This document shows, in pieces, positions 1 through 37,653 of a stretch of 39,683 bases of DNA. Every line of letters begins with the position of its first letter. Positions within the stretch are counted from its first letter, which is position 1. This stretch comes from a virus. Its lineage: Duplodnaviria; Heunggongvirae; Uroviricota; Caudoviricetes. A program made the position numbers and the translations under genes. The notes beneath the pieces are model-generated. The model was not told the origin of the DNA and made no database searches. It saw nothing but the letters and a program-made list of their open reading frames with translations. The stretch is taken from the IMG/VR virus record IMGVR_UViG_2886169441_000004. One strand, given 5' to 3'.

Positions 1-1293
<1,293 letters not shown>

Positions 1294-1315
1294 TACCCAA
1301 TTTTTCTGAATCTAA

Positions 1316-1335
1316 AAAGCGCCTGCGGGCGCTTT
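1316..1335. terminator. GC-rich hairpin directly after serS stop (AAAGCGCC-TGCG-GGCGCTTT)
   Basis: Perfect 8-bp stem read from sequence; a T-run follows on the minus strand and a weaker A/T tract on the plus strand. Confidence 0.5.
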
Positions 1336-1411
1336 AAGTAGAGGTTTAATCATTTGAAAATAAATGGATTTTATTTTTAAGTGTCCATATAACGTCCATC
1401 TTTGAATGCAA

Positions 1412-1448
1412 AAAGCCCACAGCTTCTATGCTGTGGGCTTTGTTTTTT
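1412..1448. terminator. bidirectional rho-independent terminator
   Basis: 12-bp stem AAAGCCCACAGC / GCTGTGGGCTTT with loop TTCTAT, followed by GTTTTTT on the plus strand and flanked by an A-run on the other side. Confidence 0.6.
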
Positions 1449-1598
1449 GGTGTCCTCATGAGTGAGGGAACCAAAAAGAAAACCCGCAGTTTTTACGCTG
1501 CGGGCTTGTTGTTCACGTCAACTGGAAATAGGGTGCCTTTTCGACCTTTACCCTGGCAACCGATTGACGGGGAAGTTGCCTTCCCCGTCGCGGTTTCC

Positions 1599-1739
1599 TT
1601 ACTGCTTACACTGTAAGAACGCCGCAAACTCCGCTCCCCAGAAACTCATCCGTATTTCACACAGCGAACCGTGCAGCATCCAGATGATGAGGATTGCCGT
1701 CACGCAGAATGTGATGGCCGTAAGCGATTTTTGCGACAT
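1599..1739 (-). CDS. candidate small hydrophobic protein, 46 aa (MSQKSLTAITFCVTAILIIWMLHGSLCEIRMSFWGAEFAAFLQCKQ)
   Basis: Manually translated minus-strand ORF below the track cutoff; ATG preceded by AAGGAG at about 8 nt spacing; predicted single transmembrane segment. Confidence 0.3.
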   Translation of the reverse strand: MSQKSLTAITFCVTAILIIWMLHGSLCEIRMSFWGAEFAAFLQCKQ

Positions 1740-1930
1740 AGCGCTTGCTCCTTTTTCGGGGAGGCGCTAACCTATCACTTGCTGAGGGTAGATGGTTAGG
1801 GCCTCGGGTTAACGTTAAAGTTGACTCGGGGCCTTTCCACATCTGGCCTTCGGGTATTCCCTCCGACCATCAGCCGAAAGGCACCCGCACGTAATCTATC
1901 GCTTTTTTGTTACTCCGGCAATTCTGCCTG

Positions 1931-2191
1931 TTAATTCTGAGATAAAGGCAAACTCATCTGATTGTTTCCCCTGTGTGAAGCTGGCAGATCATGCCACGGG
2001 ATACCTTCTGAAGAGTGAACGCCGGAGGCGTGTTTTGATGTGAATTTATGGAAAGCTTCCAGTGTTGAGAAGCATACGCCGCATTCCAGATTGTTACACT
2101 GGTAATACTTTTGCCGCACGGTGTTTGAATCATTTTCCGGACGACTGGTGCGGATACGGGCAGATGCGCCACAAAGCGGACAACGGAACAT
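1931..2191 (-). CDS. ogr: Ogr/Delta-type zinc-finger late transcription activator
   Basis: Starts MFRCPLCGASARIRTSR with a second Cys pair (YYQCNNLECGVCF), matching the P2 Ogr MFHCPLC zinc-finger pattern; sits right after gene D as in P2. Confidence 0.85.
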   Translation of the reverse strand: MFRCPLCGASARIRTSRPENDSNTVRQKYYQCNNLECGVCFSTLEAFHKFTSKHASGVHSSEGIPWHDLPASHRGNNQMSLPLSQN

Positions 2192-2231
2192 AGCGACCTC
2201 CCTTAACGTGGTGCTGCCTATTCTAAGTTGC

Positions 2232-3341
2232 TCACTCTGTTTCCGCTATCCATTCCGGGATTTTTGCCTCAAGCTCAAGCTGCGTGGTAAAACCGCTGTT
2301 ATCAATGGTGTGCTCGGCTTTTGCAATGATCCAGTCCTGATTATCAATCTCGCTTTTAAATCCTGTTACCGTGCCATGCATTTCGGGGTAGAGTTCTGCA
2401 CGTCCACGCGCCAGCGTGATGGAGAATGATGCGGCTCCGCGTTGTAGTTGCTGCCACTTTGCCGCCGCTGCGCGTCTTGCTGCCTGCTCGTTCTGATAAG
2501 TCTTGCGTAACACAAACACATTGCCTTCCGCGCCTTCCATATAATCACCTTCGCGGCTGCTGCTTTTCTCCTTTTTGGGTTTTGGCGGTTTACGGCGTTT
2601 CACGCTGACTTTTTTCTTTTTCCCGTAATTAAGATCAAGCCAGTAAGCGCGTACCCCCGTATACGCTTCGCGGTCAGCAATGCGGAACTGATGGCGATCG
2701 CCGCTGCTGCGTGTGATGGCAAACGATGGCAACGGCTGGCCCTGTGCGTTCACGCCACCGCCGGGCATGATGAATAACAGATTACCGCTTTTTACCGTGG
2801 TGATTGCGCCCAGCATTTCCGCCATGCGCGTAAGGAAGGACATGTCGCTTTCTTCGGTCTGGTCGGCGTGGTCGATTTCGATATCCATCAGCATTTCGCT
2901 GATTTGCGGTTTCAGACCATACCGATGAGCGATGGCGGATACCACACGCTCAACGGTCACATCATGCCAGGACACCTCACGTTTAACGTTAAATTCATCC
3001 CGAAAATCTGCGCTTCTGGCTGAAACAGTCAGCCTGTCCGGCGGTCCTTCGTGAGCGATTTCATCAACAATGTAAGTGCCTTTTTCTGTCAGCGGTTCTC
3101 CTTTCCAGCCAATGAGAACCGTCAGGCGCGCGCCCCGTGGCGGTAGCTGCAACTGACCATCCGCATCATCCAGCGTGATGGTGAGCTGGTCCGCCTCAAA
3201 TCCCCGGTTGTCGGTCAGTGACAGGCTCATCAGGCGCTCTGCCACGCCTGACAGCGTTTTACCCTCCGCGAGAATATCAAAATCCGGCATTTTCACGGGG
3301 TCTGTGCCCTGACTGAGCAATTGCATGGTGGTGTCGGTCAT
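2232..3341 (-). CDS. D: tail protein D (late control D family)
   Basis: ORF 2232..3473 resembles P2 gpD; start placed at the internal ATG at 3341 (MTDTTMQLL), which has a GGGAGGGAG Shine-Dalgarno just upstream. Confidence 0.88.
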   Translation of the reverse strand: MTDTTMQLLSQGTDPVKMPDFDILAEGKTLSGVAERLMSLSLTDNRGFEADQLTITLDDADGQLQLPPRGARLTVLIGWKGEPLTEKGTYIVDEIAHEGPPDRLTVSARSADFRDEFNVKREVSWHDVTVERVVSAIAHRYGLKPQISEMLMDIEIDHADQTEESDMSFLTRMAEMLGAITTVKSGNLLFIMPGGGVNAQGQPLPSFAITRSSGDRHQFRIADREAYTGVRAYWLDLNYGKKKKVSVKRRKPPKPKKEKSSSREGDYMEGAEGNVFVLRKTYQNEQAARRAAAAKWQQLQRGAASFSITLARGRAELYPEMHGTVTGFKSEIDNQDWIIAKAEHTIDNSGFTTQLELEAKIPEWIAETE

Positions 3342-3398
3342 CTGCTCCCTCCCTGTGCGGCATGGTCGCATGTGCGTGCGGAGGGGGTTACTGCTTTT

Positions 3399-3422
3399 TG
3401 TTGTCGCCGTGGCGGGAGAACG
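3399..3422 (+). promoter_or_regulatory. candidate Ogr-responsive late promoter element upstream of FI (TGTTGT-N12-AGAACG)
   Basis: Imperfect dyad about 90 bp upstream of the FI start; the same TGTTGT-N12-AGAAC pattern recurs in the O/P divergent region. Confidence 0.4.
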
Positions 3423-3498
3423 GCGCAGGGGTGAGATTACGCGCGTGGTGGGTGATGATTGTTGCCGAATCATTTAACGGATACAAGGGGCTGAAGCT

Positions 3499-4683
3499 AT
3501 GAGTGAAACTCGTTTTCATGGTGCCCGTGTCACGGAAAGTACCGACCTGGTAACAGCGATTAATGATGTTGATTCCAGCGTTATCGGTATCGTGGCAACG
3601 GCGGATGATGCGGATGCGGAGCTGTTCCCGCTGAACAAGCCCACACTGCTGACCCGCGTCAATGACGTGCTGGGAAAATGCGGGACTACGGGGACGCTTT
3701 ATCGTGCGCTTAAGGCTATCGCAGACCAGGTGAGCACAAAAGTGATCGTCGTTCGCGTGGCTGAACACAAAGAAGAAGGCGGTAGGACGCAGGATCAACT
3801 GGTTATCGGTGGTTCTGAATCTGACGGCAGCTATACGGGGATGTATGCGCTGCTTGTTGCAGAGCAGGATGAAAGCATCGGATACCGTCCGCGTATTCTG
3901 GCCGCGCCGGAGCTGGACACGGAGGCGGTGACAAAATCCCTGTGCGTGATTGCGGGTAAACTGCGCGCGTTTGTGTATGCCACATGTCATGGTTGTAACA
4001 CGATGGCTGAGGCGATTACCTACCGCCAGAAATTCAACGAACGTGAGGTGATGCTCTTATGGCCTGACTTCATCGCCTACAACCCGAAAAGTGGCAAAAA
4101 CGAAACGTTCCCCGCGCCTGCTTATGCGTGCGGCCTTCGTGCGTACATTGACCATGAGCAGGGCTGGCACAAATCGCTGTCCAACGTTCCGGTTAAAAAT
4201 GTGCTGGGGATGTCGAGGCATGTGTTCTGGTCGTTACAGGCCGAAGACAGTGATGCCAACAGCCTCAACAACAAAGAAATCACGACCATTATTCGTCGTA
4301 ACGGGTTCCGCTTCTGGGGCAACCGCACACCGGAAACGAACGCCTACATCTTTGAGGTGTATACCCGAACCGCACAGGTGCTGGCTGATTCAATTGCGGA
4401 AGCGCAGTTTGAAACCATCGACAGTCCACTGACGCCTGCGAACGTGAAGGATGTTATCAGTGCCATCAGGGCAAAATTGGATTCGCTGGTTACTGCCGGG
4501 AAACTGATTGGCGCGGAGTGCTGGTATGACGTGGTGGATAACGGCACCACGGATTTACGTCAGGGGCGTGTGCGTATTCGCTACAAATATACGCCCGTTC
4601 CCCCGCTGGAAGACATGGAGCTTTACCAGACGTTTACTGATGAATTCTTTGGTCCCGCATTTGCGGTGCTGGGAGGTGCCTGA
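3499..4683 (+). CDS. FI: contractile tail sheath protein FI
   Basis: 394 aa; strong similarity to P2 FI across conserved blocks (DADAELFPLNKP, QGWHKSLSNV, RRNGFRFWGNRT, YTPVPPLE). Confidence 0.93.
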   Translation: MSETRFHGARVTESTDLVTAINDVDSSVIGIVATADDADAELFPLNKPTLLTRVNDVLGKCGTTGTLYRALKAIADQVSTKVIVVRVAEHKEEGGRTQDQLVIGGSESDGSYTGMYALLVAEQDESIGYRPRILAAPELDTEAVTKSLCVIAGKLRAFVYATCHGCNTMAEAITYRQKFNEREVMLLWPDFIAYNPKSGKNETFPAPAYACGLRAYIDHEQGWHKSLSNVPVKNVLGMSRHVFWSLQAEDSDANSLNNKEITTIIRRNGFRFWGNRTPETNAYIFEVYTRTAQVLADSIAEAQFETIDSPLTPANVKDVISAIRAKLDSLVTAGKLIGAECWYDVVDNGTTDLRQGRVRIRYKYTPVPPLEDMELYQTFTDEFFGPAFAVLGGA

Positions 4684-5195
4684 TGGCTGTACCAAAACAT
4701 CTTCGCTTTTTTACGTTGTTTGTGGATGGTGAAAACGAAGTGGGTAAAGTGACATCCGTCACGCCGCCCAAACTGACGCGCAAAACCGACAGCTATCGTG
4801 GTGGTGGCATGATGGGAGCAGTAAGTATTGATCTCGGTCTGGACGACTCCGCGCTTGATGCGAGCTTTGTCATGGGGGGAGCTGTTCGTGCACTGTTCCT
4901 TAAGTATGGCGGCACGATTGACGGCACGCTGCTGCGTTTTGCGGGTGAATATTACACCGATGCAGAAAGCGATCTGTATGAAATCGAGATGCGCGGGCGT
5001 GTGACGGAAATTGATATGGGGGAGGCCAAACAGGGCGAAGCCACATCACACACTTACGCTGTCAAAAACACCTACTACAAGCTGAGCGTTAACGATCGCC
5101 CGCTGTGGGAAATCGACCTGTTGAACCACATCTACCGGAAGGACGGCAAGGACATTGTGCCTGACCGCATTCGTTCCGCGCTTGGGCTTGGCTGA
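4683..5195 (+). CDS. FII: tail tube protein FII
   Basis: 170 aa immediately after FI with a TGATG stop/start overlap; N-terminus MAVPKHLRFFTLFVDGENEVGKV is typical of P2 FII. Confidence 0.9.
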   Translation: MAVPKHLRFFTLFVDGENEVGKVTSVTPPKLTRKTDSYRGGGMMGAVSIDLGLDDSALDASFVMGGAVRALFLKYGGTIDGTLLRFAGEYYTDAESDLYEIEMRGRVTEIDMGEAKQGEATSHTYAVKNTYYKLSVNDRPLWEIDLLNHIYRKDGKDIVPDRIRSALGLG

Positions 5196-5250
5196 TAAGT
5201 AATATGCAGGCGGCGCAGTGCGTCGCCTCTGACTGAAAAGGAGACAACTG

Positions 5251-5625
5251 ATGAAAGATATCGATACTGAAACCCGGAATAACACCGTAGCGGATGATGT
5301 GACGTCAGGTGAGGATATGGCTGTCGAACGTGGTGTAAAACTTTCCCGGCCAATTGAGCGTGGTGCCGAAAAAATCACATATGTGGAGATCACCGGGGCT
5401 ATTGAGCAGGCGGGATCCCTGCGTGGTCTGTCGCTGTCTGATGTGCTGAATCTGAAAGCGGATACCATGTTCACGCTGTTGCCTCGCGTGACCTCGCCAC
5501 GACTGGATGAAGTGATGATTAAAAAAATGTCGTCACGCGATTTTATTCAGTTGTGCGCTGTGGCTGTAAATTTTATGAGCGAGCCAGACTCTGGCGCGAA
5601 GAGCGTGCAGGAGACGGCAGCGTAA
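5251..5625 (+). CDS. E: tail assembly chaperone E
   Basis: 124-aa ORF between FII and the tape measure gene; AAAAGGAG Shine-Dalgarno upstream; position and size fit P2 gpE. Confidence 0.8.
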   Translation: MKDIDTETRNNTVADDVTSGEDMAVERGVKLSRPIERGAEKITYVEITGAIEQAGSLRGLSLSDVLNLKADTMFTLLPRVTSPRLDEVMIKKMSSRDFIQLCAVAVNFMSEPDSGAKSVQETAA

Positions 5626-5789
5626 TCACCCTGGTGTGCTTTGAGCACATCGAAGATCTGGTGGCGGATATTGCCGCCATTTTCAACTGGTCGCCCGCCG
5701 AAATCTTCATGATGACGCCCGGCGAAGTGGTTAGCTGGCGTGAGCGGGCGGCACTTCGCAGCGGGAATGCAGATAATGAAGACTCTTGA
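5553..5789 (+). CDS. E' extension in the -1 frame (E+E' frameshift product)
   Basis: Open -1 frame overlaps the 3' end of E and stops just inside the T gene; candidate slippery heptamer A AAT TTT at 5568..5574. Confidence 0.6.
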   Translation: MRCGCKFYERARLWREERAGDGSVITLVCFEHIEDLVADIAAIFNWSPAEIFMMTPGEVVSWRERAALRSGNADNEDS

Positions 5790-8583
5790 CATCCGGGTCG
5801 CTTTCAGCGCCGTTGACAGGCTGACCCGGCCTGCCGAAAACGCCCGCCGCCTGATGGGGCAGTTTGGTGACTCCATTCAGCGAACGCAGGGGGCGATCAA
5901 AAATCTCGAGCGTCAGGCGCGTTCATTTGAGCGCGCCCGCGACGCTGTCAGTAAAGCGGATGCGGGTATCGTGAAAGCACGACGCCAGCTTAACGCCCTT
6001 AATCAGTTACAACGCACGGGTACAGTGCTCAGCGAAAAACAACAAAAGCTGATGCAGCAGTTAAGCACCCGGCTTGAACGCCTGAATGAATCGCGCACAC
6101 GGGAAATTCAGAAAATGCGGGAGCTTGGCGGAGAACTGAAACGCCACGGCATTTCCCTGACAGGCAGCGATAACACCATCCAGCAGGCCATCAGACGCAC
6201 CGAACAATACAACAACCAGCTTGAACGCGAACGGCAGGCGCTTGCGCGTGTAACGCAGGCTCGTGAGCGGTATTCGCGCGCGCAGGAAACCGCGGGAAAA
6301 CTGAAAACAGGTGGTGCGCTGGCAATTGGTGCGGCAGCGGCGGGCGGCTATGCTGCCGGGCGTTTTTTGCAGCCCGCGATCGGGTTCGGCAAAGAGATGT
6401 CCCGCGTTCAGGCGCTGACGCGAATCGACAAAAACAGCCCGCAGTTTAAGGCGCTGCGTGAGCAGGCGTTAAAACTTGGCTCTGAAACACAGTTTACTGC
6501 GAGTGATGCCGCCAGTGGGCAGAGCTTTCTGGCAATGGCTGGTTTTACTCCGCAGGCCATTCAGGCCGCATTGCCCGGTGTTCTTAATATGGCGCTGGCA
6601 GGTGGCGTCGAACTCGGCGAGACGGCTGATATAGGCTCCAATATCCTCACACAGTTCAACCTGACAGCCGATCAAATGGACCGGGTTGGCGATACGCTGA
6701 CAGCGGCATTCACCCGGACCAATACTGATTTACGCGCGCTGGGCGAAACCATGAAGTATACCGGTCCGGTTGCCGCAAAACTTGGTATCAGTCTTGAAGA
6801 AGCGGCAGCCATGGCCGGGATGCTTGCCAATAATGGTCTTCGTGGAAGCGATGCTGGTACGGCCATGCGCGCAAGTCTGTCCCGCCTTGCATCACCGCCA
6901 AAAGCTGCGGCTGATGCGCTGAAAGAGCTGGGGGTGTCAGTTGCTGACGCCAGAGGCAAAATGCGCCCGATGGAGGATGTGCTGCTTGATCTCTATAAGG
7001 CGACACAAAAATACGGACAGGTGGACCAGGTTTCCTTCTTCAAGGACATCGCCGGAGAAGAGGCGTTCGTTGGTTTGCAGACGCTTGTTGCGGCGGCTGG
7101 TTCAGGAGAGCTGCAAAAACTGACCAGAGAATTGCAGGGGGCAAGGGGAGAGGCCGATCGCGTTGCAAAAGTAATGGCCGATAATCTTGATGGGGACCTG
7201 AAAAATCTCGACAGCGCATGGGAAGGTCTTCGTATTCGCATCAGTGATCTGGTTGACGGTCCGCTGCGTTCTGTCACGCAGTGGCTCACGCGGGTGCTTG
7301 AAAAAATCACCTCGCTGGCGCAGGCCCATCCGGTACTGACGCGCCAGCTACTGATAGCAGGCGGTGCGTTGCTGGCAATGACTGCAACGGTTGGCTCGTT
7401 GTCGCTGGCTATTGGTGTGCTTGCTGGCCCGCTGGCAAAACTGCGTCTTGGCTTTTCCCTCCTGACCGGTTCAATGAATGCTGTCAGACTCCTGCCAGCA
7501 CTATGGGGAATGGTGACGGGTTCCGTTTCGTTACTGGGGGGCGCTATCGGGGCGTTGTTCAGTCCGGTCGGCCTTATCGTGGCTGCGCTTGCCGGAGCTG
7601 CCGTTCTCATCTGGAAATACTGGGATCCCATCAGGGCATTTTTTGCCGGGGTGTTCAGCGGGATTATGGAAAGGCTGACCCCGTTGCGCGAAACCTTTGA
7701 ACGGTTTGGTCCTGTTTTTGACGCAATCGGGAGTGGGATCAGCCAGGTGTTTAACTGGTTTAAATCGCTGCTGTCTCCGATGGAGTCCAGCAAGGAAACT
7801 CTGGATAAATGTACCAGTGCTGGCGAGATATTCGGTAACGTTCTTGGCGGTGCGTTACAACTTGTTCTGACACCTGCAAAAATGTTGCTGGATACGCTGG
7901 CGTGGATACTTGAAAAGCTTGGTGTGCTTCCGGATGAAGCGGAAAGGGCGCGCAAGAAAATCGAAGACGCACAGCGTGCGGCCATTCTTCAGGACAAGGT
8001 TGCCTTGCTTCAGGGGGACCTGGCGAAAATCAATCCGCCGAAGCCTGTGGAAAATGGCAATGGCACCGGAGGTGATAACCCCAAAGACAATAAACCGCTC
8101 ACAGACAGCAATACCGGTACGCTGCGCAGACTCAGCAAAATTGCTGATAACACAGGTAAGCTGGTTGAGGAGACGAAAAAACGCATTGGCCCCGGCGATA
8201 TTGTCTTTAAAAACCTGCCCCGAGCACTTGCTGTTCGTGGGGAGTGGCAGGAGCGGAAGATTGCGCAGGTCAGTAAGCCTGCCCCCGCAATTAATATCAC
8301 ACCCGTGGTCCCGGCTCCGCTGCCTCCGGCGCTGGTCCCTGTTGTTGCGGCCAGCTCCCGCCCGGTGGCGGAGGCTATACGATCTCCAGTGGCATCAGTT
8401 CCTGTAACTTCCCGTAACCGGGAGCCTGTTGCCTCCGGATTTGGTGGTGAAATTCATGTTCATCTGCATAACGTTGTTACGCAGAATCCCCGCGAACTGG
8501 CGAAACTGGTCGGTGAAATGGTCAGGGCAGAAATGGAACGGCGCGCCCGTGCCGGGCGTGGCAGTTTTTACGATAAAGATTGA
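5776..8583 (+). CDS. T: tail tape measure protein T
   Basis: Very long ORF (up to 947 aa from 5740) with Ala/Gly/Leu-rich coiled-coil and hydrophobic stretches; start probably ATG 5776 (MKTLDIR), with 5740 and 5767 as alternatives. Confidence 0.9.
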   Translation: MKTLDIRVAFSAVDRLTRPAENARRLMGQFGDSIQRTQGAIKNLERQARSFERARDAVSKADAGIVKARRQLNALNQLQRTGTVLSEKQQKLMQQLSTRLERLNESRTREIQKMRELGGELKRHGISLTGSDNTIQQAIRRTEQYNNQLERERQALARVTQARERYSRAQETAGKLKTGGALAIGAAAAGGYAAGRFLQPAIGFGKEMSRVQALTRIDKNSPQFKALREQALKLGSETQFTASDAASGQSFLAMAGFTPQAIQAALPGVLNMALAGGVELGETADIGSNILTQFNLTADQMDRVGDTLTAAFTRTNTDLRALGETMKYTGPVAAKLGISLEEAAAMAGMLANNGLRGSDAGTAMRASLSRLASPPKAAADALKELGVSVADARGKMRPMEDVLLDLYKATQKYGQVDQVSFFKDIAGEEAFVGLQTLVAAAGSGELQKLTRELQGARGEADRVAKVMADNLDGDLKNLDSAWEGLRIRISDLVDGPLRSVTQWLTRVLEKITSLAQAHPVLTRQLLIAGGALLAMTATVGSLSLAIGVLAGPLAKLRLGFSLLTGSMNAVRLLPALWGMVTGSVSLLGGAIGALFSPVGLIVAALAGAAVLIWKYWDPIRAFFAGVFSGIMERLTPLRETFERFGPVFDAIGSGISQVFNWFKSLLSPMESSKETLDKCTSAGEIFGNVLGGALQLVLTPAKMLLDTLAWILEKLGVLPDEAERARKKIEDAQRAAILQDKVALLQGDLAKINPPKPVENGNGTGGDNPKDNKPLTDSNTGTLRRLSKIADNTGKLVEETKKRIGPGDIVFKNLPRALAVRGEWQERKIAQVSKPAPAINITPVVPAPLPPALVPVVAASSRPVAEAIRSPVASVPVTSRNREPVASGFGGEIHVHLHNVVTQNPRELAKLVGEMVRAEMERRARAGRGSFYDKD

Positions 8584-8589
8584 GGAGTC

Positions 8590-9084
8590 ATGGCCATGAT
8601 GATGATCTACGGCATGTTTGTTTTTGAGCTGCGCACGCTGCCGCATCAGCAGTTACAGCAAAACAAAAGCTGGCGGCATGTGAAAAATGAACGCGTTAAC
8701 CGTTCAGCAAGCTGGCAGTATATCGGTGCAGGTGATGATCGCATCGTTCTTTCTGGTGTGCTTTATCCTGAAATTACAGGTGGCGAAGTGTCGCTGTCGC
8801 TGCTGACCACGCAGGCGTATACAGGACGACCCTGGCCTTTGATTGATGGCGTCGGGCAGATTTACGGCATGTATGTCCTGACTGAAACGAATACGACCCG
8901 CTCCGAGTTTGATCGCTACGGTAAGGCGAAAAAGATAGAATTTTCACTGACTCTTGAACGCTGTGATGAGGATTTGCGGGAGCGCCTGCAATCCTCATCG
9001 TTCAGTGATATGCTGTCCGGCTTCAAAGATAAGGTGACATCATCTCTTAACAGCGCGGCCAGTTCAGTTAAAGGGCTGTTCTGA
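8590..9084 (+). CDS. U: tail protein U
   Basis: 164 aa; conserved SWRHxxNxRVNRSASWQYIG and PWPLIDG blocks as in P2 gpU; GAGGAG Shine-Dalgarno. Confidence 0.87.
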   Translation: MAMMMIYGMFVFELRTLPHQQLQQNKSWRHVKNERVNRSASWQYIGAGDDRIVLSGVLYPEITGGEVSLSLLTTQAYTGRPWPLIDGVGQIYGMYVLTETNTTRSEFDRYGKAKKIEFSLTLERCDEDLRERLQSSSFSDMLSGFKDKVTSSLNSAASSVKGLF

Positions 9085-9093
9085 TTTAACACA

Positions 9094-9123
9094 AAAACCG
9101 CTAATGGTCAGATTAGCGGTTTT
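9094..9123. terminator. perfect palindromic hairpin between convergent U and invertase genes
   Basis: AAAACCGCTAAT-GGTCAG-ATTAGCGGTTTT with 12-bp arms; A-run on one side and T-run on the other, so it can terminate in both directions. Confidence 0.65.
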
Positions 9124-9712
9124 CATTTTCCTGAGTCTGCCCGGTTGTTTCTTCAGTCTGTATATCGCCTACAGGGTGATAACGATAAATCGTCGATGTG
9201 CCAATGCCGTAAATTATTGCCAGTTGTTTTCTGTCGTGCCCGTTTTTGATTAGCCTTGCTATTTGCTCATGCTGTTCTTTTGTCAGCTTCGGTCGACGTC
9301 CGCCTGTGCGCCCCCTTGCGCGCGCTGCCGCCAGCCCGGCCAGTGTACGTTCAACAATTAATTCACGTTCCATTTCAGCCAGGGCACCCATCACGTGGAA
9401 GAAAAAACGCCCCATTGGAGAAGATGTGTCTATGCTGTCGGTCAGACTGCGAAAATTAATCCCTCGCTCCCGTAGTTCCCCGACGAGAGAAATCAGATGT
9501 TTCATGCTTCGCCCGAGGCGATCCAGTTTCCAGACAACCAGCGTGTCACCTTTTTGAAGGCGCTTTAAAGCGCGTTTTAATCCCGGTCGGTCTGTCTTTG
9601 TCCCGCTTAATTTATCTTCAAATATTTGTTCACATCCTGCACAAACAAGAGCGTTTCGTTGCAGGTCTGTATTCTGGTCATTTGTTGATACCCTTACATA
9701 GCCAATCAGCAC
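9113..9712 (-). CDS. pin: serine recombinase, DNA invertase of the Pin/Hin/Gin/Cin family
   Basis: Near-identical over most of its length to e14 Pin as I recall it (LIGYVRVSTNDQNTDLQRNAL..., catalytic Ser in the RVST motif); start placed at GTG 9712 with GGGAGA upstream, while the track's extended ORF begins at a TTG. Confidence 0.92.
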   Translation of the reverse strand: MLIGYVRVSTNDQNTDLQRNALVCAGCEQIFEDKLSGTKTDRPGLKRALKRLQKGDTLVVWKLDRLGRSMKHLISLVGELRERGINFRSLTDSIDTSSPMGRFFFHVMGALAEMERELIVERTLAGLAAARARGRTGGRRPKLTKEQHEQIARLIKNGHDRKQLAIIYGIGTSTIYRYHPVGDIQTEETTGQTQENENR

Positions 9713-9766
9713 ACTGAATCTCCCGTCCAAAAGCGCAAATCATGCCATGCAGGCCAGAAACGGCCA

Positions 9767-9792
9767 TTATTTAAAACCTCGGTTTACGAGAA
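9767..9792. other. gix/hix-like 26-bp crossover site (TTATTTAAAACCTCGGTTTACGAGAA), invertase-proximal
   Basis: About 21 of 26 positions match the Mu gix site as I recall it; present in inverted orientation relative to the site at 12309..12334. Confidence 0.6.
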
Positions 9793-10284
9793 CTCGGCAC
9801 AAGCGGGGAGAAAATACCGTTACTCAGTACAGCGAATACCTGGACCAATCGACAAACATTCAGCGGTGGCCTTTCTGGGGAACTGTCCGGCAATGCCGCT
9901 ACTGCAACAAAACTGAAAACAGCACGAAAAATTGCTGGAGTTGGTTTTGATGGTTCTAGCGATATTTCAATTAGTGCCAAAAATGTCATGCTTTGCCTCC
10001 GAAAACAGGAATACGTTGCGTGATAACAGTTGGATGGAATGGATAGGGAGCTATAACGCATATTGGTGGTGCATCACGTTAATTTTCATTTATATAAGCG
10101 GAAGTTGTCCTGCGTCAGTTCGGTTAATTATAAAAATGGGGTATTTTTACGTCGCCGTGATGGTTATGGTTTGAAGGTGGTCGATTTTACACCACCACGA
10201 AAACCTTCAGCGGAGATGTTGGTGCATTTATCGGGTCATGAATGTACTGGTATCACATCAGTGCTTGCGTATTCATTGTTGTGA
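9793..10284 (+). pseudogene. alternative tail-fibre C-terminal segment, interrupted by stop and frameshift
   Basis: Manual translation gives a tail-fibre-like stretch (GELSGNAATATKLKTARKIAGVGFDGSSDISISAKNV), then a stop; a downstream frame encodes [18 protein letters not shown], which resembles the minus-strand tip. Confidence 0.5.
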
Positions 10285-10607
10285 TATGACCGGCTTTACA
10301 TGGCGATGGTATCTGTTATGCTATTACGTCCATGTATGCGCTTGTCCCGGAAGCATTCAGTATAGACATAATATACGGGCGTGTTAATCCTCGATTACGG
10401 TACTTGATTCCGTTATGTGAAAGATGTTCGACTGGTTCACAGCAATATATGGATGAACAACTGCGAACATGGAATTTCCAGGCCTCAGGTCATGTATTGT
10501 CGTATTAATGTCAGGATACAGGGTCTAACTCGCGATAATATAGCGGTGTTATTACAGACCGTTCAAAAGTATATAATGGCACTGGTATAATGTAGCGAGC
10601 GTTTAAT

Positions 10608-11114
10608 ATGATGCACTTAAAGAACATAAAGCGGTAAGCTAAAACATGAACAGTATGAGTTAACAAAGAAACACAGTATGGCTTTACTCAGGACGGAAAA
10701 AACTGGTATGAGGAAGAAAAATTTCAGCCAGACACATAAAATGTTACGATGAATAATATTATTGTCGCCATCACCAGAGATGCCTTCACGCTTAATCCCG
10801 AAGGTTTTAGCGTCGTCGAGGTTTCCGATATAACGGCCAATCGTCGGACCGATGATTCCGGTAAGTGGATGTTTAAGGACGGAGCTGTGGTTAAACGGAT
10901 TTATACGGCTGACGAACAGCAACAACAGGCCGAATCACAAAAGGCCGCATTGCTTTCCGAAGCTGAATCAGTCATCCAGCCGCTGGAACGCGCTGTCAGG
11001 CTGAATATGGCAACAGACGAGGAACGCACACGACCGGAAGCATGGGAACGCTACAGTGTTCTGGTCAACCGTGTGGATACGGCAAATCCTGAATGGCCAC
11101 AAAAGCCTGAATAA
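10608..11114 (+). pseudogene. tail fibre assembly protein (Tfa) copy with degenerate 5' end
   Basis: ORF 10749..11114 carries the Tfa core ([43 protein letters not shown]); the expected N-terminus at 10608 reads MMHLKNIKR then stops. Confidence 0.6.
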
Positions 11115-11142
11115 AAATTAAGGCCCGTTATCGGGCCTTGTC

Positions 11143-11674
11143 TCATTCAGGTTGTTCGGGAAATGTTACTGGCAGGCTGGAGGTGTCTGTGGATTCGACT
11201 TTCTGCGCATAGAGCATCCACTCGGTTAATTTTTGTTTATTCTCGTCGGAAATGATGCCCAGCCGTAGCTGTGAGTCCCATAGCTGAGTTTTATCCCTGA
11301 CAAGTTGCAACAGGCTCTGCTTTTCATTTTCCGCTTGTTGCCTCTGCTCTTCCTCGGTATAAGTTCGCTTTACCACTACGCCATCTTTGAACATCCATTT
11401 CCCCGAAATATCAGCCCGGCGATTTGCTGTAATATCAGGTAATTCAACGACGCTTGCGCCTTCCGGATTAATGCTGAAACATCCTTTTCCATACAAATAA
11501 TAACGCCGTTATGTCATAGACCATTTTCAAAGTGTCTGGCTGGAAATTCTTTTTTTCCTCATACCAGTTTTTTCCATCAGCTGAATAAAGCCATTTGATG
11601 TTAAATTGCTTTGTTAGCTGGTATTGCTCTTTTGTTTTAGGGTTGCCAGCAGTAATGTTTTTTAAGTGCATCAT
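11143..11674 (-). pseudogene. tail fibre assembly protein (Tfa) split by a frameshift
   Basis: N-terminal part ([40 protein letters not shown]) at 11468..11674 and the remainder ([31 protein letters not shown]) at 11143..11496 lie in different frames and overlap by 29 nt. Confidence 0.6.
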
Positions 11675-11676
11675 CG

Positions 11677-11952
11677 TTAAATACTCCCCGCGTTATACCA
11701 CGTCCCATTAATGCAATACTGAATTGGCCTTGCCTGTGTTGTATCAATTAATTCATCACGGTTTCCGTTAACTGAACCCGTAACGACATAACCTGACCTG
11801 TCAGACCAGCCGGGACCATTCCATGTCTGAACAGATGACAGACCGCCAAGGCGAATACCTGTAATAAACCTTGAGTTACATTCTGTCCGCGTATATGCAC
11901 CAACATCTCCCGCTGAAGGTTTTCTGTGTGGTGTAAAATCGACCACCTTCAA
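11677..11952 (-). CDS. tail-fibre distal (receptor-binding) C-terminal fragment, not in frame with H
   Basis: 91-aa ORF ([18 protein letters not shown]...[13 protein letters not shown]) resembles e14/lambdoid side-tail-fibre tips as I recall them; separated from H by a stop and about 170 bp of decayed sequence. Confidence 0.55.
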
Positions 11953-12119
11953 ACCATAACCATCACGGCGACGTAAAAATACCCCATTTTTATAATTAAC
12001 CGAATGACGCAGGACACTCCGTCTATATAAAATGAATAATTAACGGATGCACCACCAATATGCGTTATAGCTCCGCTATCCATTCCATCCAACTGTATCA
12101 CCAACGTCTTCCTGTTTTC

Positions 12120-13598
12120 CTAGGCAAAGCACAACATATTGCTTAATTGATATCGGAGAACCATCAAAACCACATGCATTTTCTGCGTTTTAATTTTGCA
12201 GTAGAGCATTGCCGGATAGTTCCCAGAAAGGCCACCGCTGAATGTTTGTCGATTAGTCCAGGTATTCGCTGTACTGAGTAACGGTATTTTCTCCCCGCTT
12301 GTGCCGAGTTCTCGTAAACCGAGGTATTCGATAACGGCAGCAACGGTCGATTTCGCAAGAATATCCCGCCCGACTTTTGTCAGGGTTGCCAGGCTGGCGA
12401 CATCATTCCCCGTAAAATACGGAAACTTGCCTGCCGCAGTAGTAAGTCCGGCCAGCGCCGTCAGGGTGGCATCTTTCGGTTGCTTACCCGCAAGCGCGTT
12501 AGTCATGGTGGTCGCAAAATTCGGGTCGTTGCCCAGCGCCGCAGCCAGCTCGTTCAGCGTGTTCAGTGCATCAGGTGACGAATCTACAAGGGCGGCAATC
12601 GCAGCCATAACGAAAGCCGTGCTTGCGATTTGGGTATTATTCGTTCCCTGTCGCGCAGTTGGTGTTGTTGGCGTTCCGGTCAGTGCAGGACTATTTAAGG
12701 GCGCTTTCTTGTTCGTTTCATCCATTACCGCCTTAACAGCTTTCGATGTCGCGGCCAGTGTTTCAGACGTGCTGTTGGTGGCACTACTGAGCTGGACTAT
12801 CCCTTTTTGTGCCGTCGTGGCGTCCTGAGCGGTATATTTTGCGTTAGCAAGGTCATACGCGGCCTTTACTGCTTTCGGCGTTGCAGCCTGCGTTTCAGAC
12901 GTGCTGTTGGTGGCGCTACTGAGCTGGACAAGGCCTTTTCGCGTCGTGCTGGCATCCTGCGCAGTATATTTACCGTTAGCAAGGTCATACGCGGCCTTTA
13001 CTGCTTTCGGCGTTGCAGCCTGCGTTTCAGACACGCTGTTAGTGGCGCTACTGAGTTGAACAAAGCCTTTTGCGGTCAGCGAGGCGTCCGGGTGACGTCG
13101 TGACTGTTCATGCTCTTTCAGTTTGTCATCCACGTAATCCACTGTGGCCATCACCATGGTGTTATCCACGGTAAGCACCACGGTGGCAGTGCTGGATACG
13201 GTCAGAATGGTGCGAAATGTTTGTGCACGACCGGACCCTTCGGCAACGGCTGGCTTGTAACTTTCGGCAGTATTGCCCACCGCGATTAAATCGCCGTGCT
13301 CATCAAATACACCAATTTCCCGGATCCAGAATCCGCCCGTTTCAGGAGGAATAACCAGCTCCGCAATAATGCGGTTCTGATGTGTTGCGTCCAGGATGAC
13401 GCGATTAACAGTATGTCGCCACACCTCATGCACCAGACGGGTCTGCTTACTGTCTGGTGTGGGCAACGTGCCGCCACCGTCGCCCACGGCCATATGAGTC
13501 AGGCGGACAGGCTTACCATCTGGCGCGGCTGCCTGAGCTAATTTTTTGGCACCCGTATCGGTGATAACGGTTTTAAATTTACGTGTTGTGGTACTCAT
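12120..13598 (-). CDS. H: tail fibre protein H (constant part intact, distal end decayed)
   Basis: N-terminal 300 aa resemble P2 gpH (MAVGDGGG, IIAELVIPPE, HEQSRRHPDASLTAKGF); contains about 2.5 tandem 44-aa repeats; the ORF ends in non-fibre sequence after the crossover site. Confidence 0.85.
   Translation of the reverse strand: MSTTTRKFKTVITDTGAKKLAQAAAPDGKPVRLTHMAVGDGGGTLPTPDSKQTRLVHEVWRHTVNRVILDATHQNRIIAELVIPPETGGFWIREIGVFDEHGDLIAVGNTAESYKPAVAEGSGRAQTFRTILTVSSTATVVLTVDNTMVMATVDYVDDKLKEHEQSRRHPDASLTAKGFVQLSSATNSVSETQAATPKAVKAAYDLANGKYTAQDASTTRKGLVQLSSATNSTSETQAATPKAVKAAYDLANAKYTAQDATTAQKGIVQLSSATNSTSETLAATSKAVKAVMDETNKKAPLNSPALTGTPTTPTARQGTNNTQIASTAFVMAAIAALVDSSPDALNTLNELAAALGNDPNFATTMTNALAGKQPKDATLTALAGLTTAAGKFPYFTGNDVASLATLTKVGRDILAKSTVAAVIEYLGLRELGTSGEKIPLLSTANTWTNRQTFSGGLSGNYPAMLYCKIKTQKMHVVLMVLRYQLSNMLCFA
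12309..12334. other. gix/hix-like 26-bp crossover site (TTCTCGTAAACCGAGGTATTCGATAA) inside the 3' part of H
   Basis: About 22 of 26 positions match gix; its reverse complement is near-identical to the site at 9767..9792. Confidence 0.6.
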
Positions 13599-13600
13599 GC

Positions 13601-14131
13601 TTAATCGTCCGGATAAATGGTAATGACTTCGCCGTCGTAAGTTGCTGCCGCCGCGAAAATATCTCCCTGAATCTCCTGAATGATATTCAGCCCTGTCATG
13701 TGGCGGCTGACCGGGCGGGCATCAGCAATCAACCGCTCCATTTCCAGATACATTTCCTCCGTCACGCCACTGTCCAGCGTGCCGACTTCAACGGTAAATG
13801 TTCCCGGTTCTCCGCCGAACTCCCACCACTCAGACACGCGAATGAGGTATCCCAGCGGCTCAATGGCCCGGCGCAGTGCGCTGATGGTCCCTTTGTGTCG
13901 GTGTATCAGCCATGCATCACGAATCACCTGTCGCTTTGTCTCTTCCGGCCAGTTGCGATCCCAGCGGTCAACGGAAAATGCCCAGGCGAGATAAGGCAGC
14001 AGATGCACCGGGCAGGTGTCCGGTGACCACAGCGTGTTGAGGTCTACCGGGATGTCTGTAATGCGCGCTCCGACAGCTTCGGCGCAACGCATGAAATTGC
14101 TGGCTGATGGCGGTAACAGTGAATTACTCAT
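13601..14131 (-). CDS. I: baseplate/tail protein I
   Basis: Similar to P2 gpI (LLPYLAWAFSVDRWD, PVSRH); start placed at ATG 14131 (MSNSLLPP), overlapping the J stop. Confidence 0.85.
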   Translation of the reverse strand: MSNSLLPPSASNFMRCAEAVGARITDIPVDLNTLWSPDTCPVHLLPYLAWAFSVDRWDRNWPEETKRQVIRDAWLIHRHKGTISALRRAIEPLGYLIRVSEWWEFGGEPGTFTVEVGTLDSGVTEEMYLEMERLIADARPVSRHMTGLNIIQEIQGDIFAAAATYDGEVITIYPDD

Positions 14132-15020
14132 TACGCCCACCTTCGCTGATGGTGAATGACTCACAGCGCGCCGCCTGTATGTCGCTGATGGCCATATTCT
14201 GTGTGGGTTCGATTATCTCCACGCGTTGCACGCCGTGCACATGAAGTGCGGCAGCAATGGCTGACAACGCCACGTCCTGACCAATAAGCCCCTGCTCAGC
14301 CAGCCACTTCCTGAACGACGATTCAGCCGCAGCCAGAATAGGTTCGGATTCCGGGCCGGGGTAAAAGTACAGTTTTGCATTCAGCCGCCATGTCACGATG
14401 CTGGCGCTCTGTACGGTCAGTCGGTCGGCCACCGGGCGGGTATCCTCTGCATTCAGAACGGCGCGAACGGTATTAAGCAACGCCTCCGTTGCTGTGCCGT
14501 CGCCTTCAGTGGACAGAATGGAAACCGTCACACAGGCCGGAGACGGGCTGATGGCCCGCGCATCACGCACCAGACCGCTGGCGCTGCGTGCAAAATACTC
14601 GTATGCACCTGACGGGCCAGCAACACTCAGGCCGTCATACGCCCGCTGCGCCCGCAGTCTCAGCGAGGTGTCGCTCTCCATCACCGCGTCGGTGGTATCC
14701 GTTGCCGGAGTGATAACCAGGCGCTTTGTGTTCATATTGCCCGCGAGGTTGTCCAGGTTTGTCCCTGAACCGTGGCTTAACATGCAGGCGCGTGCGCCCT
14801 CGTTAACCCGCTGGCGTAACAGCATTTCACGAAACGACATGGTTTGAGCGATAACGTTCAGGGGTTCTGATTCCAGCTCCAGCGCGGCGGAGACGGCTTC
14901 ACGCTGTTCGGCAGGATAGGACGCAATCATCATGGCCTTTGTGTCAGCCAGAATTGCCTCAAAATCAGGCTCCGCGATGATGGCGGGTTCCGGTAACTGG
15001 GAAAGATCAACAGCAGGCAT
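14124..15020 (-). CDS. J: baseplate assembly protein J
   Basis: 298 aa; similar to P2 gpJ from the N-terminus (MPAVDLSQLPEP) through the TVQSA and HVHGVQRVE blocks. Confidence 0.9.
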   Translation of the reverse strand: MPAVDLSQLPEPAIIAEPDFEAILADTKAMMIASYPAEQREAVSAALELESEPLNVIAQTMSFREMLLRQRVNEGARACMLSHGSGTNLDNLAGNMNTKRLVITPATDTTDAVMESDTSLRLRAQRAYDGLSVAGPSGAYEYFARSASGLVRDARAISPSPACVTVSILSTEGDGTATEALLNTVRAVLNAEDTRPVADRLTVQSASIVTWRLNAKLYFYPGPESEPILAAAESSFRKWLAEQGLIGQDVALSAIAAALHVHGVQRVEIIEPTQNMAISDIQAARCESFTISEGGRNE

Positions 15021-15023
15021 GAT

Positions 15024-15374
15024 TTACTCTCTCAGCGTGATGGTTAATTCAACATTCTGCATGGTCTGCATGACAGTGCCCGACAGCGTCACCCCGGCGC
15101 GGCCTCCTGCCTTCCAGACAACGTCGATGGCGTCCAGGGCAATGCGGGGTTCCCATCGTGTCAGCGCAATCACGGCAGCACTCATGCATTGCAGACGCGT
15201 GGTGTTATTCATGGGTTCGTCAATCAAATCAGGCACAAGGCTGCCATATTCCCGTCGCATAACCCGGCTTGCCAGCGGGGTGATCAGGATGTCCCTGACT
15301 GACTGTTTCAGGTGCTCCATATCGTTCAGGTTTCCCGTCCCGTCCGGGTTCATTCCTGTGTAGCGGGTTGTCAC
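15024..15374 (-). CDS. W: baseplate protein W (gp25-like)
   Basis: 116 aa; conserved ILITPLASRVMRREYGS and AAVIALTRWEPR blocks; start overlaps the V stop. Confidence 0.87.
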   Translation of the reverse strand: MTTRYTGMNPDGTGNLNDMEHLKQSVRDILITPLASRVMRREYGSLVPDLIDEPMNNTTRLQCMSAAVIALTRWEPRIALDAIDVVWKAGGRAGVTLSGTVMQTMQNVELTITLRE

Positions 15375-15952
15375 TGCGGGCCTCCTGTCGAATCGCTGCC
15401 ACCTTTAACGCCACCGTGCTTATGCGTATGCACGGTAATGCCGTTTGAGGTGAAATTGCCGCCGCTGTGCGTGATATTGCCGCTCATCTTTCCCTCTTTT
15501 GTGACGTCAAGCGTCGCCGTTCTCAGAAGGTTTGTGCATTCCACGACGGGCGTATCCAGTGTCACGCTGACGGATGCCTGCAGGGTGGCTGTTTTCATGC
15601 CGCTGGCGCTCAGTGCGCCAGCGTCTGCGTCGTAGCGGAACACCGCGCCATCCGGCGCGCTGACCACGATTTCTTTCAGGCTTTTGCCGGGGGCCGGACT
15701 GGCATCACTCCACAGGCTGCCAATTATCATGGCGGTTTCCGGGTTGCCGCCAATGCAGGCAATTACCACCTGTTCGCCTGGTGATGGCGGCAGCCACACA
15801 TTGAAGGCTCCCGCGCGCGTGGTGTTCCAGCGCAACCAGCCTGTTTCCAGTTCGCCGCTGCGAACGCGCACGCGCCAGGACTTCTCATCAACTTCAGAGA
15901 TGATCCCGGTGCGGATGATGTTGCTCAGCAGTCGCATGAGTTCTGCGCTCAC
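15371..15952 (-). CDS. V: baseplate spike protein V
   Basis: 193 aa; position and sequence fit P2 gpV; start overlaps the S stop. Confidence 0.87.
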   Translation of the reverse strand: MSAELMRLLSNIIRTGIISEVDEKSWRVRVRSGELETGWLRWNTTRAGAFNVWLPPSPGEQVVIACIGGNPETAMIIGSLWSDASPAPGKSLKEIVVSAPDGAVFRYDADAGALSASGMKTATLQASVSVTLDTPVVECTNLLRTATLDVTKEGKMSGNITHSGGNFTSNGITVHTHKHGGVKGGSDSTGGPQ

Positions 15953-16593
15953 CGTACAGCCTCCGCAATCCGGCCCAGCACCGTGTTATAAATCAGGCGC
16001 TCATCTGCCTGGCTGATACCCAACAGCTCACGTACCGGGTAATCGGTGAAAATGCCCGGCGCAACCTGATCGCGCTCACCGAACTGATGAACGCGTGCAA
16101 TACGTGCGGCCACGCCGCTGTAACCCACCGTCACACCGGAGGCATCTGCACGGGCTTTCAGGTAGCGGGCGGTGCGCAGTTTTACGAACATGGGGACGCG
16201 CTTTGTGCTGTCCTGGTTGATGCGCCGGGTGCGTATTTCCAGAAAACGGTCGATGTCATCCCGGTAAAACGTGCGGATATTGTTTTTATCCTCATCCCAC
16301 CCGGTAATGGTTCGCCCGTATTTCCCTGTGTCGTGATGCCAGTTTTTCAGCGTGCGTGCTTCGTTATTCCAGATAAAGCGAATGCGCTCCTGTATCCGGG
16401 TTACGCGGCGTCTGCGTGGTGTCCATTCGGTCCCGTCCGGCGCTTTTTGTGACCGGATACGTGCCTGCTGGGCGCGACGTAAATCCTGTGCCAGCTTTCT
16501 GGCGATGTTATTGATGGCCTGCTGATTCAGGCTGTCGCGGATAGCCTCAAAGGTTTCATCCACGCGGGTGAATGCCTTATCCATCGCTTTCAC
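15949..16593 (-). CDS. S: tail completion / virion morphogenesis protein S
   Basis: 214 aa between R and V; assigned by position and recalled similarity to P2 gpS. Confidence 0.82.
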   Translation of the reverse strand: MKAMDKAFTRVDETFEAIRDSLNQQAINNIARKLAQDLRRAQQARIRSQKAPDGTEWTPRRRRVTRIQERIRFIWNNEARTLKNWHHDTGKYGRTITGWDEDKNNIRTFYRDDIDRFLEIRTRRINQDSTKRVPMFVKLRTARYLKARADASGVTVGYSGVAARIARVHQFGERDQVAPGIFTDYPVRELLGISQADERLIYNTVLGRIAEAVR

Positions 16594-17044
16594 CCCACGT
16601 CACATCCTGGAATACATGCGACCAGTCGCCTTCGGAAGAAGGCAGACGGGGTTTTGGCTCCGGCAGGTGTTCTGCCTGCGGTGTGCCCTGACTGTTGCGC
16701 GTGATGCGAACGCGTTCCCGCAGGGGGAGCGTAAACAGGAGATCGGCGCTGTCATCGTCATTGATAACGGCAGAAAATTTGATGTCCTGATTACGCTCCG
16801 GATTGAGCAACAACTGTGGCTGATTTTCGGATAACCACGCCAGCAGCGGCAGCGTGAGGTCGTCCAGCTCTCCGGCGTAATCCATGACAAACATCACCAT
16901 CTGATAGCGGTAAACAAACGAGGGCGCTTCTCCGGTCGTTTCAATGTTGCCGCTCTCCACGAAAATGGTGAATTTCTCGGGATTAGCCTGGCACCACCGA
17001 CACCCATGAAGCATGGACTCTCGCAGACTGTTTGTCTTAAGCAT
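16577..17044 (-). CDS. R: tail completion protein R
   Basis: 155 aa upstream of S; assigned by position and recalled similarity to P2 gpR. Confidence 0.8.
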   Translation of the reverse strand: MLKTNSLRESMLHGCRWCQANPEKFTIFVESGNIETTGEAPSFVYRYQMVMFVMDYAGELDDLTLPLLAWLSENQPQLLLNPERNQDIKFSAVINDDDSADLLFTLPLRERVRITRNSQGTPQAEHLPEPKPRLPSSEGDWSHVFQDVTWGESDG

Positions 17045-17067
17045 CTGTTTTGCTCTCCTGCTCTTCC

Positions 17068-18945: not shown

Positions 18946-19223
18946 TGTGTTACTCCCGTCTGGTGTGTCAGTTCGGCTATTCTCTTATCCAGTTCAGCAA
19001 TGGCCCGTTTATCCGCGTTACAGGTTTCCAGTGCATCCAGAAGGCGGTCGCCCCATATTCCGAGGTTTCCCCATGTGGGTGGGTCAGGGAAGGGGGGAGG
19101 CGTTACCGGCATGGTCAGCGTCTGCGGTATAAGCCGGACTGACGGCGCTGGCCCTGGCGCGTTCTGCGTGCCTGCGCAACCTGTCAGTAAAACGAGCGTC
19201 AGGCAAAGCGTGGGCGCATTCAT
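18942..19223 (-). CDS. lysC: outer-membrane spanin lipoprotein (LysC/Rz1-like)
   Basis: Starts MNAPTLCLTLVLLTGCAG with a lipobox; Pro-rich; overlaps the 3' end of the LysB-like gene in another frame. Confidence 0.6.
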   Translation of the reverse strand: MNAPTLCLTLVLLTGCAGTQNAPGPAPSVRLIPQTLTMPVTPPPFPDPPTWGNLGIWGDRLLDALETCNADKRAIAELDKRIAELTHQTGVTQ

Positions 19224-19479
19224 CTTTTGCAATATCGTTGCGTAGCTGTTCACGTCTTACCTCTCCGTCCTGATTGCGTTGCTGATTTTCCGCGCGGAGC
19301 TGAGCCAGCACCTGCTGCATATCCTGTACCCCGGCGCTGATGATATTCAGTGTGTCGACGGTACTTTTCAGGGTGCTGGCCTGCGCTTCGTTTCTGGCGT
19401 TCTCCCGGCCCAGCGACCACGACAGACGCATGGATGTAATCAGAAGGAAAGCGACGCCAAGCGTGGGCCAGAGCTTCAT
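19084..19479 (-). CDS. lysB: inner-membrane spanin (LysB/Rz-like)
   Basis: Start placed at the internal ATG (MKLWPTLGVAFLLITS), giving an N-terminal TM helix followed by a coiled-coil-like region; sits right after the endolysin. Confidence 0.6.
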   Translation of the reverse strand: MKLWPTLGVAFLLITSMRLSWSLGRENARNEAQASTLKSTVDTLNIISAGVQDMQQVLAQLRAENQQRNQDGEVRREQLRNDIAKDECAHALPDARFTDRLRRHAERARASAVSPAYTADADHAGNASPLP

Positions 19480-20188: not shown

Positions 20189-20190
20189 TG

Positions 20191-20885: not shown

Positions 20886-20986
20886 GGGGTTCACTCCTGA
20901 AAAAATCGGGCGGTGGGTGCGCGGTGTAAACGGTCACGGAGTCAAACCGGAACACCGCGCACGCCGCCCGCTGACGGGGTCAGTCG

Positions 20987-21787: not shown

Positions 21788-21806
21788 TTTTTCTCTCCGT
21801 TACAGG

Positions 21807-21825: not shown

Positions 21826-21832
21826 GAGTTGA

Positions 21833-22885: not shown

Positions 22886-22908
22886 AAAAAATTTGCTCCT
22901 TTGTCTTA

Positions 22909-37649: not shown

Positions 37650-37653
37650 ACGA

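Follow-up and report, generated by a model that had tools for sequence, protein, structure and literature searches.

In phage P2, the tail genes FI-FII-E-T-U-D-ogr are colinear, with D standing last in the FI operon behind the unidirectional promoter pF. A single activator dyad shared by two divergent late promoters is found in P2 only between P and O, where it lies centrally in a spacer of ~155 bp and is flanked on either side, at 44-49 bp, by the -10 elements of pO and pP. Here, we analyzed a stretch of 39,683 nucleotides of viral DNA (IMG/VR record IMGVR_UViG_2886169441_000004; in the following, the window is this whole stretch), in which the block FI-FII-E-T-U (FI-U) is inverted relative to D and ogr. 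The shared-dyad design of P2 pO/pP recurs in the window and appears to be present at the D-FI spacer as well, with transcription starts that are predicted there and annotated in P2. The same gene set is found in Cartapus (Elveevirus) and other colinear P2-like phages. Unlike the window, Cartapus carries FI-U-D-ogr on one strand, its U overlaps D and its D is 53% identical; a Gin-type invertase is located between its tail-fibre genes and FI, i.e., in the P2 Z/fun position. The distance from the upstream pF dyad to FI is 80-85 bp in the colinear phages and agrees with that in the clade of the window. The closest known systems are the phages of the genus Xuanwuvirus (P88, P884B11, phiSM, 500465-2, 520873), in which ogr, D, FI-U and the invertase follow one another on the same strands as in the window and the D-FI spacer likewise measures 157 bp and holds the same dyad. 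They differ from it only in the tail-fibre/invertible module and in small accessory genes. Our overall explanation, to which we assign a probability of roughly 85%, is that the window displays the normal gene order of an entire clade and that this order is served by two promoters sharing one dyad between D and FI.

Gene order of the FI-U block and its distribution

Gene identities were obtained by PHROG and Pfam searches, and the Prokaryotic Genome Annotation Pipeline (PGAP) annotation of the identical locus in the E. coli O25b:H4-ST131 chromosome NZ_CP103710 served as an independent gene map. The window starts with serS of the E. coli host (1..1293), from where a P2-like prophage extends to the window end; its integrase, recognized by Pfam, begins at 38676 and runs off the window. 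The P2-type structural gene set is present (Q P, O N M L X, lysis, R S V W J I H G, FI FII E T U D and ogr, as seen from PGAP of the ST131 locus, PHROG and Pfam). On the minus strand, ogr (1931..2191) encodes an Ogr/Delta zinc-finger late activator (Pfam PF04606 Ogr_Delta, 52.4 bits against a cut-off of 26.3; 'Ogr/Delta-like zinc finger protein' in PGAP) and follows D after a gap of 40 bp. D itself (2232..3341, minus strand) encodes the tail/baseplate hub of 369 amino acids (Pfam Phage_GPD). The longest open reading frame of D reaches an in-frame ATG at 3473. We nevertheless place its start at the ATG at 3341, because a GGGAGG Shine-Dalgarno sequence lies upstream of it, homology begins there and both PGAP and the phiSM record annotate 1110 nt; the match of phrog_52 starts at residue 43 of the long open reading frame.

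The plus strand takes over behind a divergent intergenic D-FI spacer of 157 bp (3342..3498). The tail sheath gene FI (3499..4683; phrog_23, Pfam Phage_sheath_1) is followed by the tail tube gene FII (4683..5195; Pfam Phage_tube, 155 bits) and by the tail assembly chaperone pair E (5251..5625; phrog_103) and E' (5553..5789), the latter overlapping E in the -1 frame and assigned to the GpE family by PGAP at 5634..5789. The tape measure gene T (5776..8583 in PGAP coordinates; phrog_28) and the tail protein gene U (8590..9084, with a PGAP start at 8596; Pfam Phage_P2_GpU, 133 bits) complete the block. After an intergenic gap of 28 bp (9085..9112), the minus strand resumes with a Gin/Pin-type serine invertase (9113..9712; Pfam Resolvase and HTH_7) that shares 93-97% DNA identity with gin of Mu and D108, and continues with the tail-fibre and baseplate genes H, I, J, W and V. 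The original prediction, made from the DNA letters and their open reading frames, had described FI-FII-E-T-U (3499..9084) as inverted against D-ogr and the invertase by the standard of P2 and had placed both junctions between genes. PHROG, Pfam and the annotated strands agree with this description. Its further suggestion that flipping 3342..9112 would restore a canonical order also holds, as the flip gives V..H-G, gin, FI..U, D, ogr, i.e., the order annotated in Cartapus.

The same prediction implied that the arrangement is unusual, possibly a misassembly or an invertase product. Departure from the P2 order is the sole point that speaks for an assembly error in the source genome. The window, however, matches NZ_CP103710 at 100.000% identity and without gaps over 1..9760 and 12341..25000, with zero mismatches across both junctions, which rules a misassembly out, and phage genomes sequenced independently as well as hundreds of complete chromosomes show the same arrangement. 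We thus consider the chance of such an error negligible.

Megablast comparison with phage records, which covered the 8-kb stretch 1800..9800 rather than whole genomes, returned single-piece colinear matches of 93-96% identity to P88, P884B11, Citrobacter phage phiSM, 500465-2 and others, including 93.3% for P88 and 95.8% for P884B11 at 100% coverage. The annotations of these phages give the strands as in the window, i.e., D (minus), FI..U (plus) and invertase (minus). More distant phages carry the same order as well, namely Klebsiella phage Kp4871-3 (Reginaelenavirus, D 70% identical) and Salmonella phage SEN5 (Senquatrovirus, D 64% identical), which lacks any invertase. We further scanned one genome per bacterial species and found 47 loci with a relative of D, 43 of which were evaluable as their DNA reached FI. 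FI was adjacent to and divergent from D in every one of these 43 representatives, spanning more than 20 genera and D identities of 65-99%, and ogr lay downstream of D in 42 of them. Hosts of the D relatives include Salmonella, Edwardsiella, Serratia, Erwinia, Pantoea, Enterobacter, Klebsiella, Kosakonia, Brenneria, Pectobacterium and Symbiopectobacterium. Within E. coli, a probe across the D-FI junction (2900..3940) was matched in 1380 of 5426 complete genomes and intact in 1355. Distant relatives from six genera, whose D is at most 53% identical, stay colinear (P2, Cartapus, YenM_42.18, Dobby, PhiBP82.2, phiMhaA1). Comparison with related prophages, which the original prediction had proposed as a check, therefore does not bear out an anomaly, since the order is the same in all 43 species representatives and in 1355 E. 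coli genomes.

Functional phages are among the carriers of this order. P88 is a mitomycin C-induced, plaque-forming myovirus with a burst size of ~65 that was imaged by electron microscopy (PMC5285337), phiSM was described as a fully functional temperate phage (PMC6456863) and SEN4/5 were recovered as produced phage (PMC5261728). For P88, phiSM and SEN5, the arrangement is thus the normal order of functional phages, which speaks against an anomaly on the terms that the original prediction had set itself. This also bears on the idea that the inversion crippled D expression and left the prophage tail-defective. D can indeed not belong to the FI transcript, but P88, phiSM and SEN4/5 make infectious tailed particles with the same order (PMC5285337, PMC6456863, PMC5261728), and an intact D has been conserved throughout the clade, at identities of 65-99%. 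These relatives refute a defect caused by the arrangement as such, a verdict that concerns the arrangement and not the individual prophage of the window; overall, we regard a crippled D as extremely improbable.

Judging from these comparisons, the window is the normal genome of a P88-like (Xuanwuvirus) prophage beside serS in an ST131-type E. coli. The simplest reading of the distribution is that the FI-U block was inverted once, long ago, and that the inversion became fixed and now defines a large clade of P2-like phages in Enterobacterales. By gene order, this clade consists of Xuanwuvirus (P88, phiSM), Senquatrovirus (SEN4/5), Reginaelenavirus and many prophages. The order is already known from public annotated records of a named genus with characterized phages. 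Published, functional phages share it with prophages in roughly one quarter of the complete E. coli genomes, and it amounts to little as a discovery. Neither the inversion nor a bidirectional D-FI promoter was found described in the papers on P88, phiSM, SEN4/5 and Serratia PP4 or by keyword searches, in a survey that did not include Casjens & Grose 2016. As a caution, P2 is not a template for every P2-like phage, and tools for annotation or for scoring prophage completeness should not call this order of FI-U rearranged or defective.

The D-FI spacer as a candidate bidirectional late promoter

To the original prediction, D seemed cut off from the FI late promoter. The D-FI spacer suggests otherwise. 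It contains an Ogr-type dyad at 3399..3421 (TGTTGT-N12-AGAAC) with the core TGT-N12-AGA at 3402..3419 and its centre at 3410.5. On the FI side, a -10-like hexamer (GATGAT, plus strand) is found at 3454..3459, and on the D-ogr side an extended -10 (TGnGACCAT, minus strand) at 3362..3370, each 44-49 bp from the dyad centre. The ATG of D lies only ~70 bp from this centre, on the other strand, and behind its own conserved extended -10; the claimed separation of D from the late promoter does not hold. Across the 39.7 kb, TGTTGT-N12-AGAAC occurs exactly twice, each time in a divergent late spacer. The second copy (23815..23837) is positioned centrally in the 154-bp divergent O-P spacer and is flanked 44-50 bp on either side by the -10-like hexamers TAATCT (P) and CATCAT (O).

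P2 provides the reference for this geometry. Its record annotates one 'activator binding site; pO, pP promoters' at 3057..3087 together with transcription starts for P (3016) and O (3127), which lie on opposite sides of GTTGT-N12-CCA, each 55.5 bp from its midpoint. At 44-49 bp from the dyad centre (45-50 for O) stand the hexamers GAAACT (pO) and TAGCCT (pP) in P2, and GATGAT (FI) and GACCAT (D) in the window, where GACCAT is preceded by a TG one base upstream. The offset of the FI -10 is the same as in P2 pO/pP and pF, whose transcription starts are annotated. The candidate dyad of the original prediction is present, although not as an exact TGT-N12-ACA, for its right half (TGT-N12-AGA) is one base off. 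A search of the window for exact TGT-N12-ACA returned three matches, fewer than expected by chance and none of them in a late promoter region. This strict pattern proved too narrow, as the sites annotated in P2 itself are also one base off (GTTGT-N12-CCAAC). No sigma-70 consensus promoter was found by a scan of the D-FI spacer, as expected for activator-dependent promoters.

We then compared 43 distinct D-FI spacers, which were anchored on the dyad through alignment columns. The left half TGTTGT is essentially invariant and the right half reads A[C/G]A..C, with the canonical TGTTGT-N12-ACA being present in 18 of the 43 relatives. On the FI arm, xAnnAT is kept at +44..49 in 42 of 43 spacers, while on the D arm A45 is found in all 42 and T49 in 40 of 42. 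The TG of the D arm at positions 41-42 carries 1.6 bits at each base, and its neighbouring positions are variable; the N12 spacer and most other positions remain below 0.5 bit. The spacing between the dyad and the ATG is less constant and ranges over 79-89 bp for FI and 63-72 bp for D. The fixed quantity is thus the distance between dyad and -10, which is what would be expected of two promoters that both depend on the dyad.

From this motif geometry, we infer the promoter role of the spacer and the activation of both promoters by Ogr. The D-FI spacer is thus a probable bidirectional Ogr-dependent late promoter. Through the inversion, the pF dyad that drives FI in P2 would have come to adjoin D. 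The one Ogr dyad (centre 3410.5) would then lie at about -55 (-55.5 predicted) from two divergent predicted starts. Transcription from a start at ~3466, with its -10 at 3454..3459, would proceed rightward through FI to U, and transcription from a start at ~3355, with its extended -10 at 3370..3362, leftward through D and ogr. The FI-U transcript would end at a bidirectional terminator (9094..9123) held in common with the convergent invertase gene.

Several points weigh against this assignment. The right half-site of the window (AGAAC) differs from ACAAC by one base, and the predicted leader of D measures only ~14 nt. In three colinear enterobacterial phages, the pF dyad is equally far from FI and the opposite arm lacks such a -10 element, but this control comprises only three usable genomes, one of which is AT-rich and ambiguous. 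Conservation of the motifs among related sequences could partly reflect shared ancestry. Moreover, an extended -10 can work without an activator, so that D-ogr might be independent of Ogr. D and ogr would in this case be transcribed from the extended -10 alone, or ogr from a TAGAAT of its own in the 40-bp D-ogr gap, with the dyad serving FI only. The conserved TG at positions 41-42 of the D arm is compatible with such an Ogr-independent promoter, as are the separate promoter that P2 annotates between D and ogr and the -10-like TAGAAT in the D-ogr gap of the window. Nevertheless, the -10 of the D arm keeps its mirrored 44-49 bp offset in 40-42 of 42 relatives while the leader drifts by 9 bp, which fits a coupling to the dyad, and if ogr were transcribed constitutively in a prophage, the late genes should be turned on. 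We thus judge Ogr-independent transcription of D-ogr unlikely and favor a dyad that acts on both sides.

With somewhat less confidence, we lean towards a scenario in which the symmetric Ogr site of pF was co-opted bidirectionally after the inversion, so that two dyads would serve four operons (P-Q and O...G at one, D-ogr and FI...U at the other). If true, ogr would belong to one of the dyad-driven operons and the late activator would directly amplify its own synthesis. This wiring of two sites and four operons was not found described in the papers that could be searched, and it is the only mildly new idea here. Its biological interest is modest, in that the clade apparently absorbed the inversion by bidirectional re-use of a dyad-symmetric activator site, as P2 does at pO/pP.

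The invertase, its tail-fibre segment and the U terminator

As the invertase gene abuts the FI-U block, the block might be an active invertible segment, flipped by this Gin-type enzyme or by another recombinase, with the window capturing one of two states. When the window is scanned with its own two gix-like 26-mers, a weak resemblance to gix sites appears near both junctions, with 13-15 of 26 matches at 3338 and 9063. This resemblance is, however, within the background of the window (99.9th percentile, 14 of 26) and lacks the AAACC-NN-GGTTT core. No inverted repeat pairs 3342..3498 with 9085..9112. Searching 1800..12500 for inverted repeats revealed long repeats solely around the tail-fibre segment and none that pair the block ends. 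The two features by which an invertase product might be recognized, flanking inverted repeats and gix-like sites, were therefore both searched for at the junctions and found at neither. Orientation is constant in 1355 E. coli genomes and in all 43 species representatives, the majority of which lack an invertase in reach; among the listed partial matches to the D-FI probe in the 1380 E. coli genomes with a match, none breaks at the junction, i.e., a second orientation was not found. Finally, the FI-U block is base-perfect, whereas the true invertible segment has a garbled consensus (see below). An active FI-U switch is accordingly very improbable, and a fixed inversion remains our preferred reading.

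Gix-like sites are found only at 9767..9792 and 12309..12334, in inverted orientation (TTATTTAAAACCTCGGTTTACGAGAA and its inverted partner, 23 of 26 positions identical), where they bound an invertible tail-fibre segment of 2.5 kb. Long inverted repeats accompany them (9763..9879 and 12222..12338, 117 nt at 96%) and extend in pieces to about 10230 and 11892. From the position of these sites, we conclude that the invertase (9113..9712) serves the tail-fibre segment and not the FI-U block. This adjoining switch resembles the Mu G segment and the P1 C segment with their invertases Gin and Cin, while the FI-U block has no such features.

The window departs from NZ_CP103710 inside the tail-fibre segment, where it lacks 1-4 nt at more than 170 scattered positions and has hardly any insertions. 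These differences are restricted to the arms of the segment (9930..10750 and 11920..12220), in which every open reading frame for fibres or their assembly is fragmented; H stops early at 12120. These deletions look like a consensus artefact of reads in mixed orientation rather than real decay, which suggests that the invertase was active in the sequenced culture; the window sequence at 9930..10750 and 11920..12220 is not to be trusted. Within the tail-fibre gene H, two tandem copies of a 132-nt unit, 83% identical to each other, are located at 12730..12993.

The original prediction had placed a perfect palindrome in the 28-bp gap between U and the invertase. The palindrome is indeed perfect, but it is not contained in the gap, as it extends with its right arm into the final codons of the invertase. 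A terminator scan identified it as a hairpin at 9094..9123 with perfect 12-bp arms, a 6-nt loop and T-runs on both strands. Folding gave a 12-bp hairpin of -15.7 kcal/mol (z -3.6) on the plus strand and a 15-bp hairpin of -17.1 kcal/mol (z -4.2) on the minus strand. By these predictions, U and the invertase gene converge on an intrinsic terminator of the ordinary kind that works in both directions. The U-invertase junction is intact in 621 E. coli genomes, while in many further genomes the match ends at about 9089. What follows the U terminator, i.e., the module of invertase and fibre genes, is therefore a swappable cassette.

Other features of the prophage

The stretch from O to H on the minus strand (23745..12120), which comprises the genes for head, lysis, baseplate and fibres, may be transcribed as a single unit of ~11.6 kb. 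S overlaps V (15937..15952), and no dyad resembling a late activator site is found upstream of V. P2, unlike the window, has a separate pV promoter after orf30. A gene for a DUF6645 protein of 625 amino acids (17068..18945, minus strand) separates the lysis genes from the tail-completion genes R/S. P2 has no counterpart at this position, which marks the gene as a large accessory insertion in the late operon of the window. At 28000..29000, between the portal end and ParM-type partition genes, the GC content falls to 0.33 over the genes for a DUF4760 protein and a hypothetical protein; an accessory cassette was probably acquired here in recent times.

In the early region of the prophage, Rfam detects a C4 antisense RNA (34332..34419, minus strand, 83 bits) and, beside it, an isrK Hfq-binding RNA (34455..34529, minus strand, 65 bits), both above their gathering scores. 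By their Rfam assignments, the pair is an antisense immunity element of the P1/P7 type in a P2-like phage. A frameshifted integrase considered at 37227..38279 was rejected, as Pfam gives a Cox-like protein and an unassigned open reading frame there.

At the opposite end, phrog_16140 ('unknown function') matches the host serS over its full length (E 3e-232). We rejected this match at 1..1293 as a phage gene in favor of host serS. The family seems to be built from the bacterial flanks of prophage records and can thus mislead automated annotation. Between serS and ogr, at the end of the prophage, lies a Hok/Gef-family toxin gene (1599..1739, minus strand), which is annotated as 'MokW-like host killing' in P88 and is flanked by strong hairpins at 1412..1441, 1480..1507 and 1565..1590.

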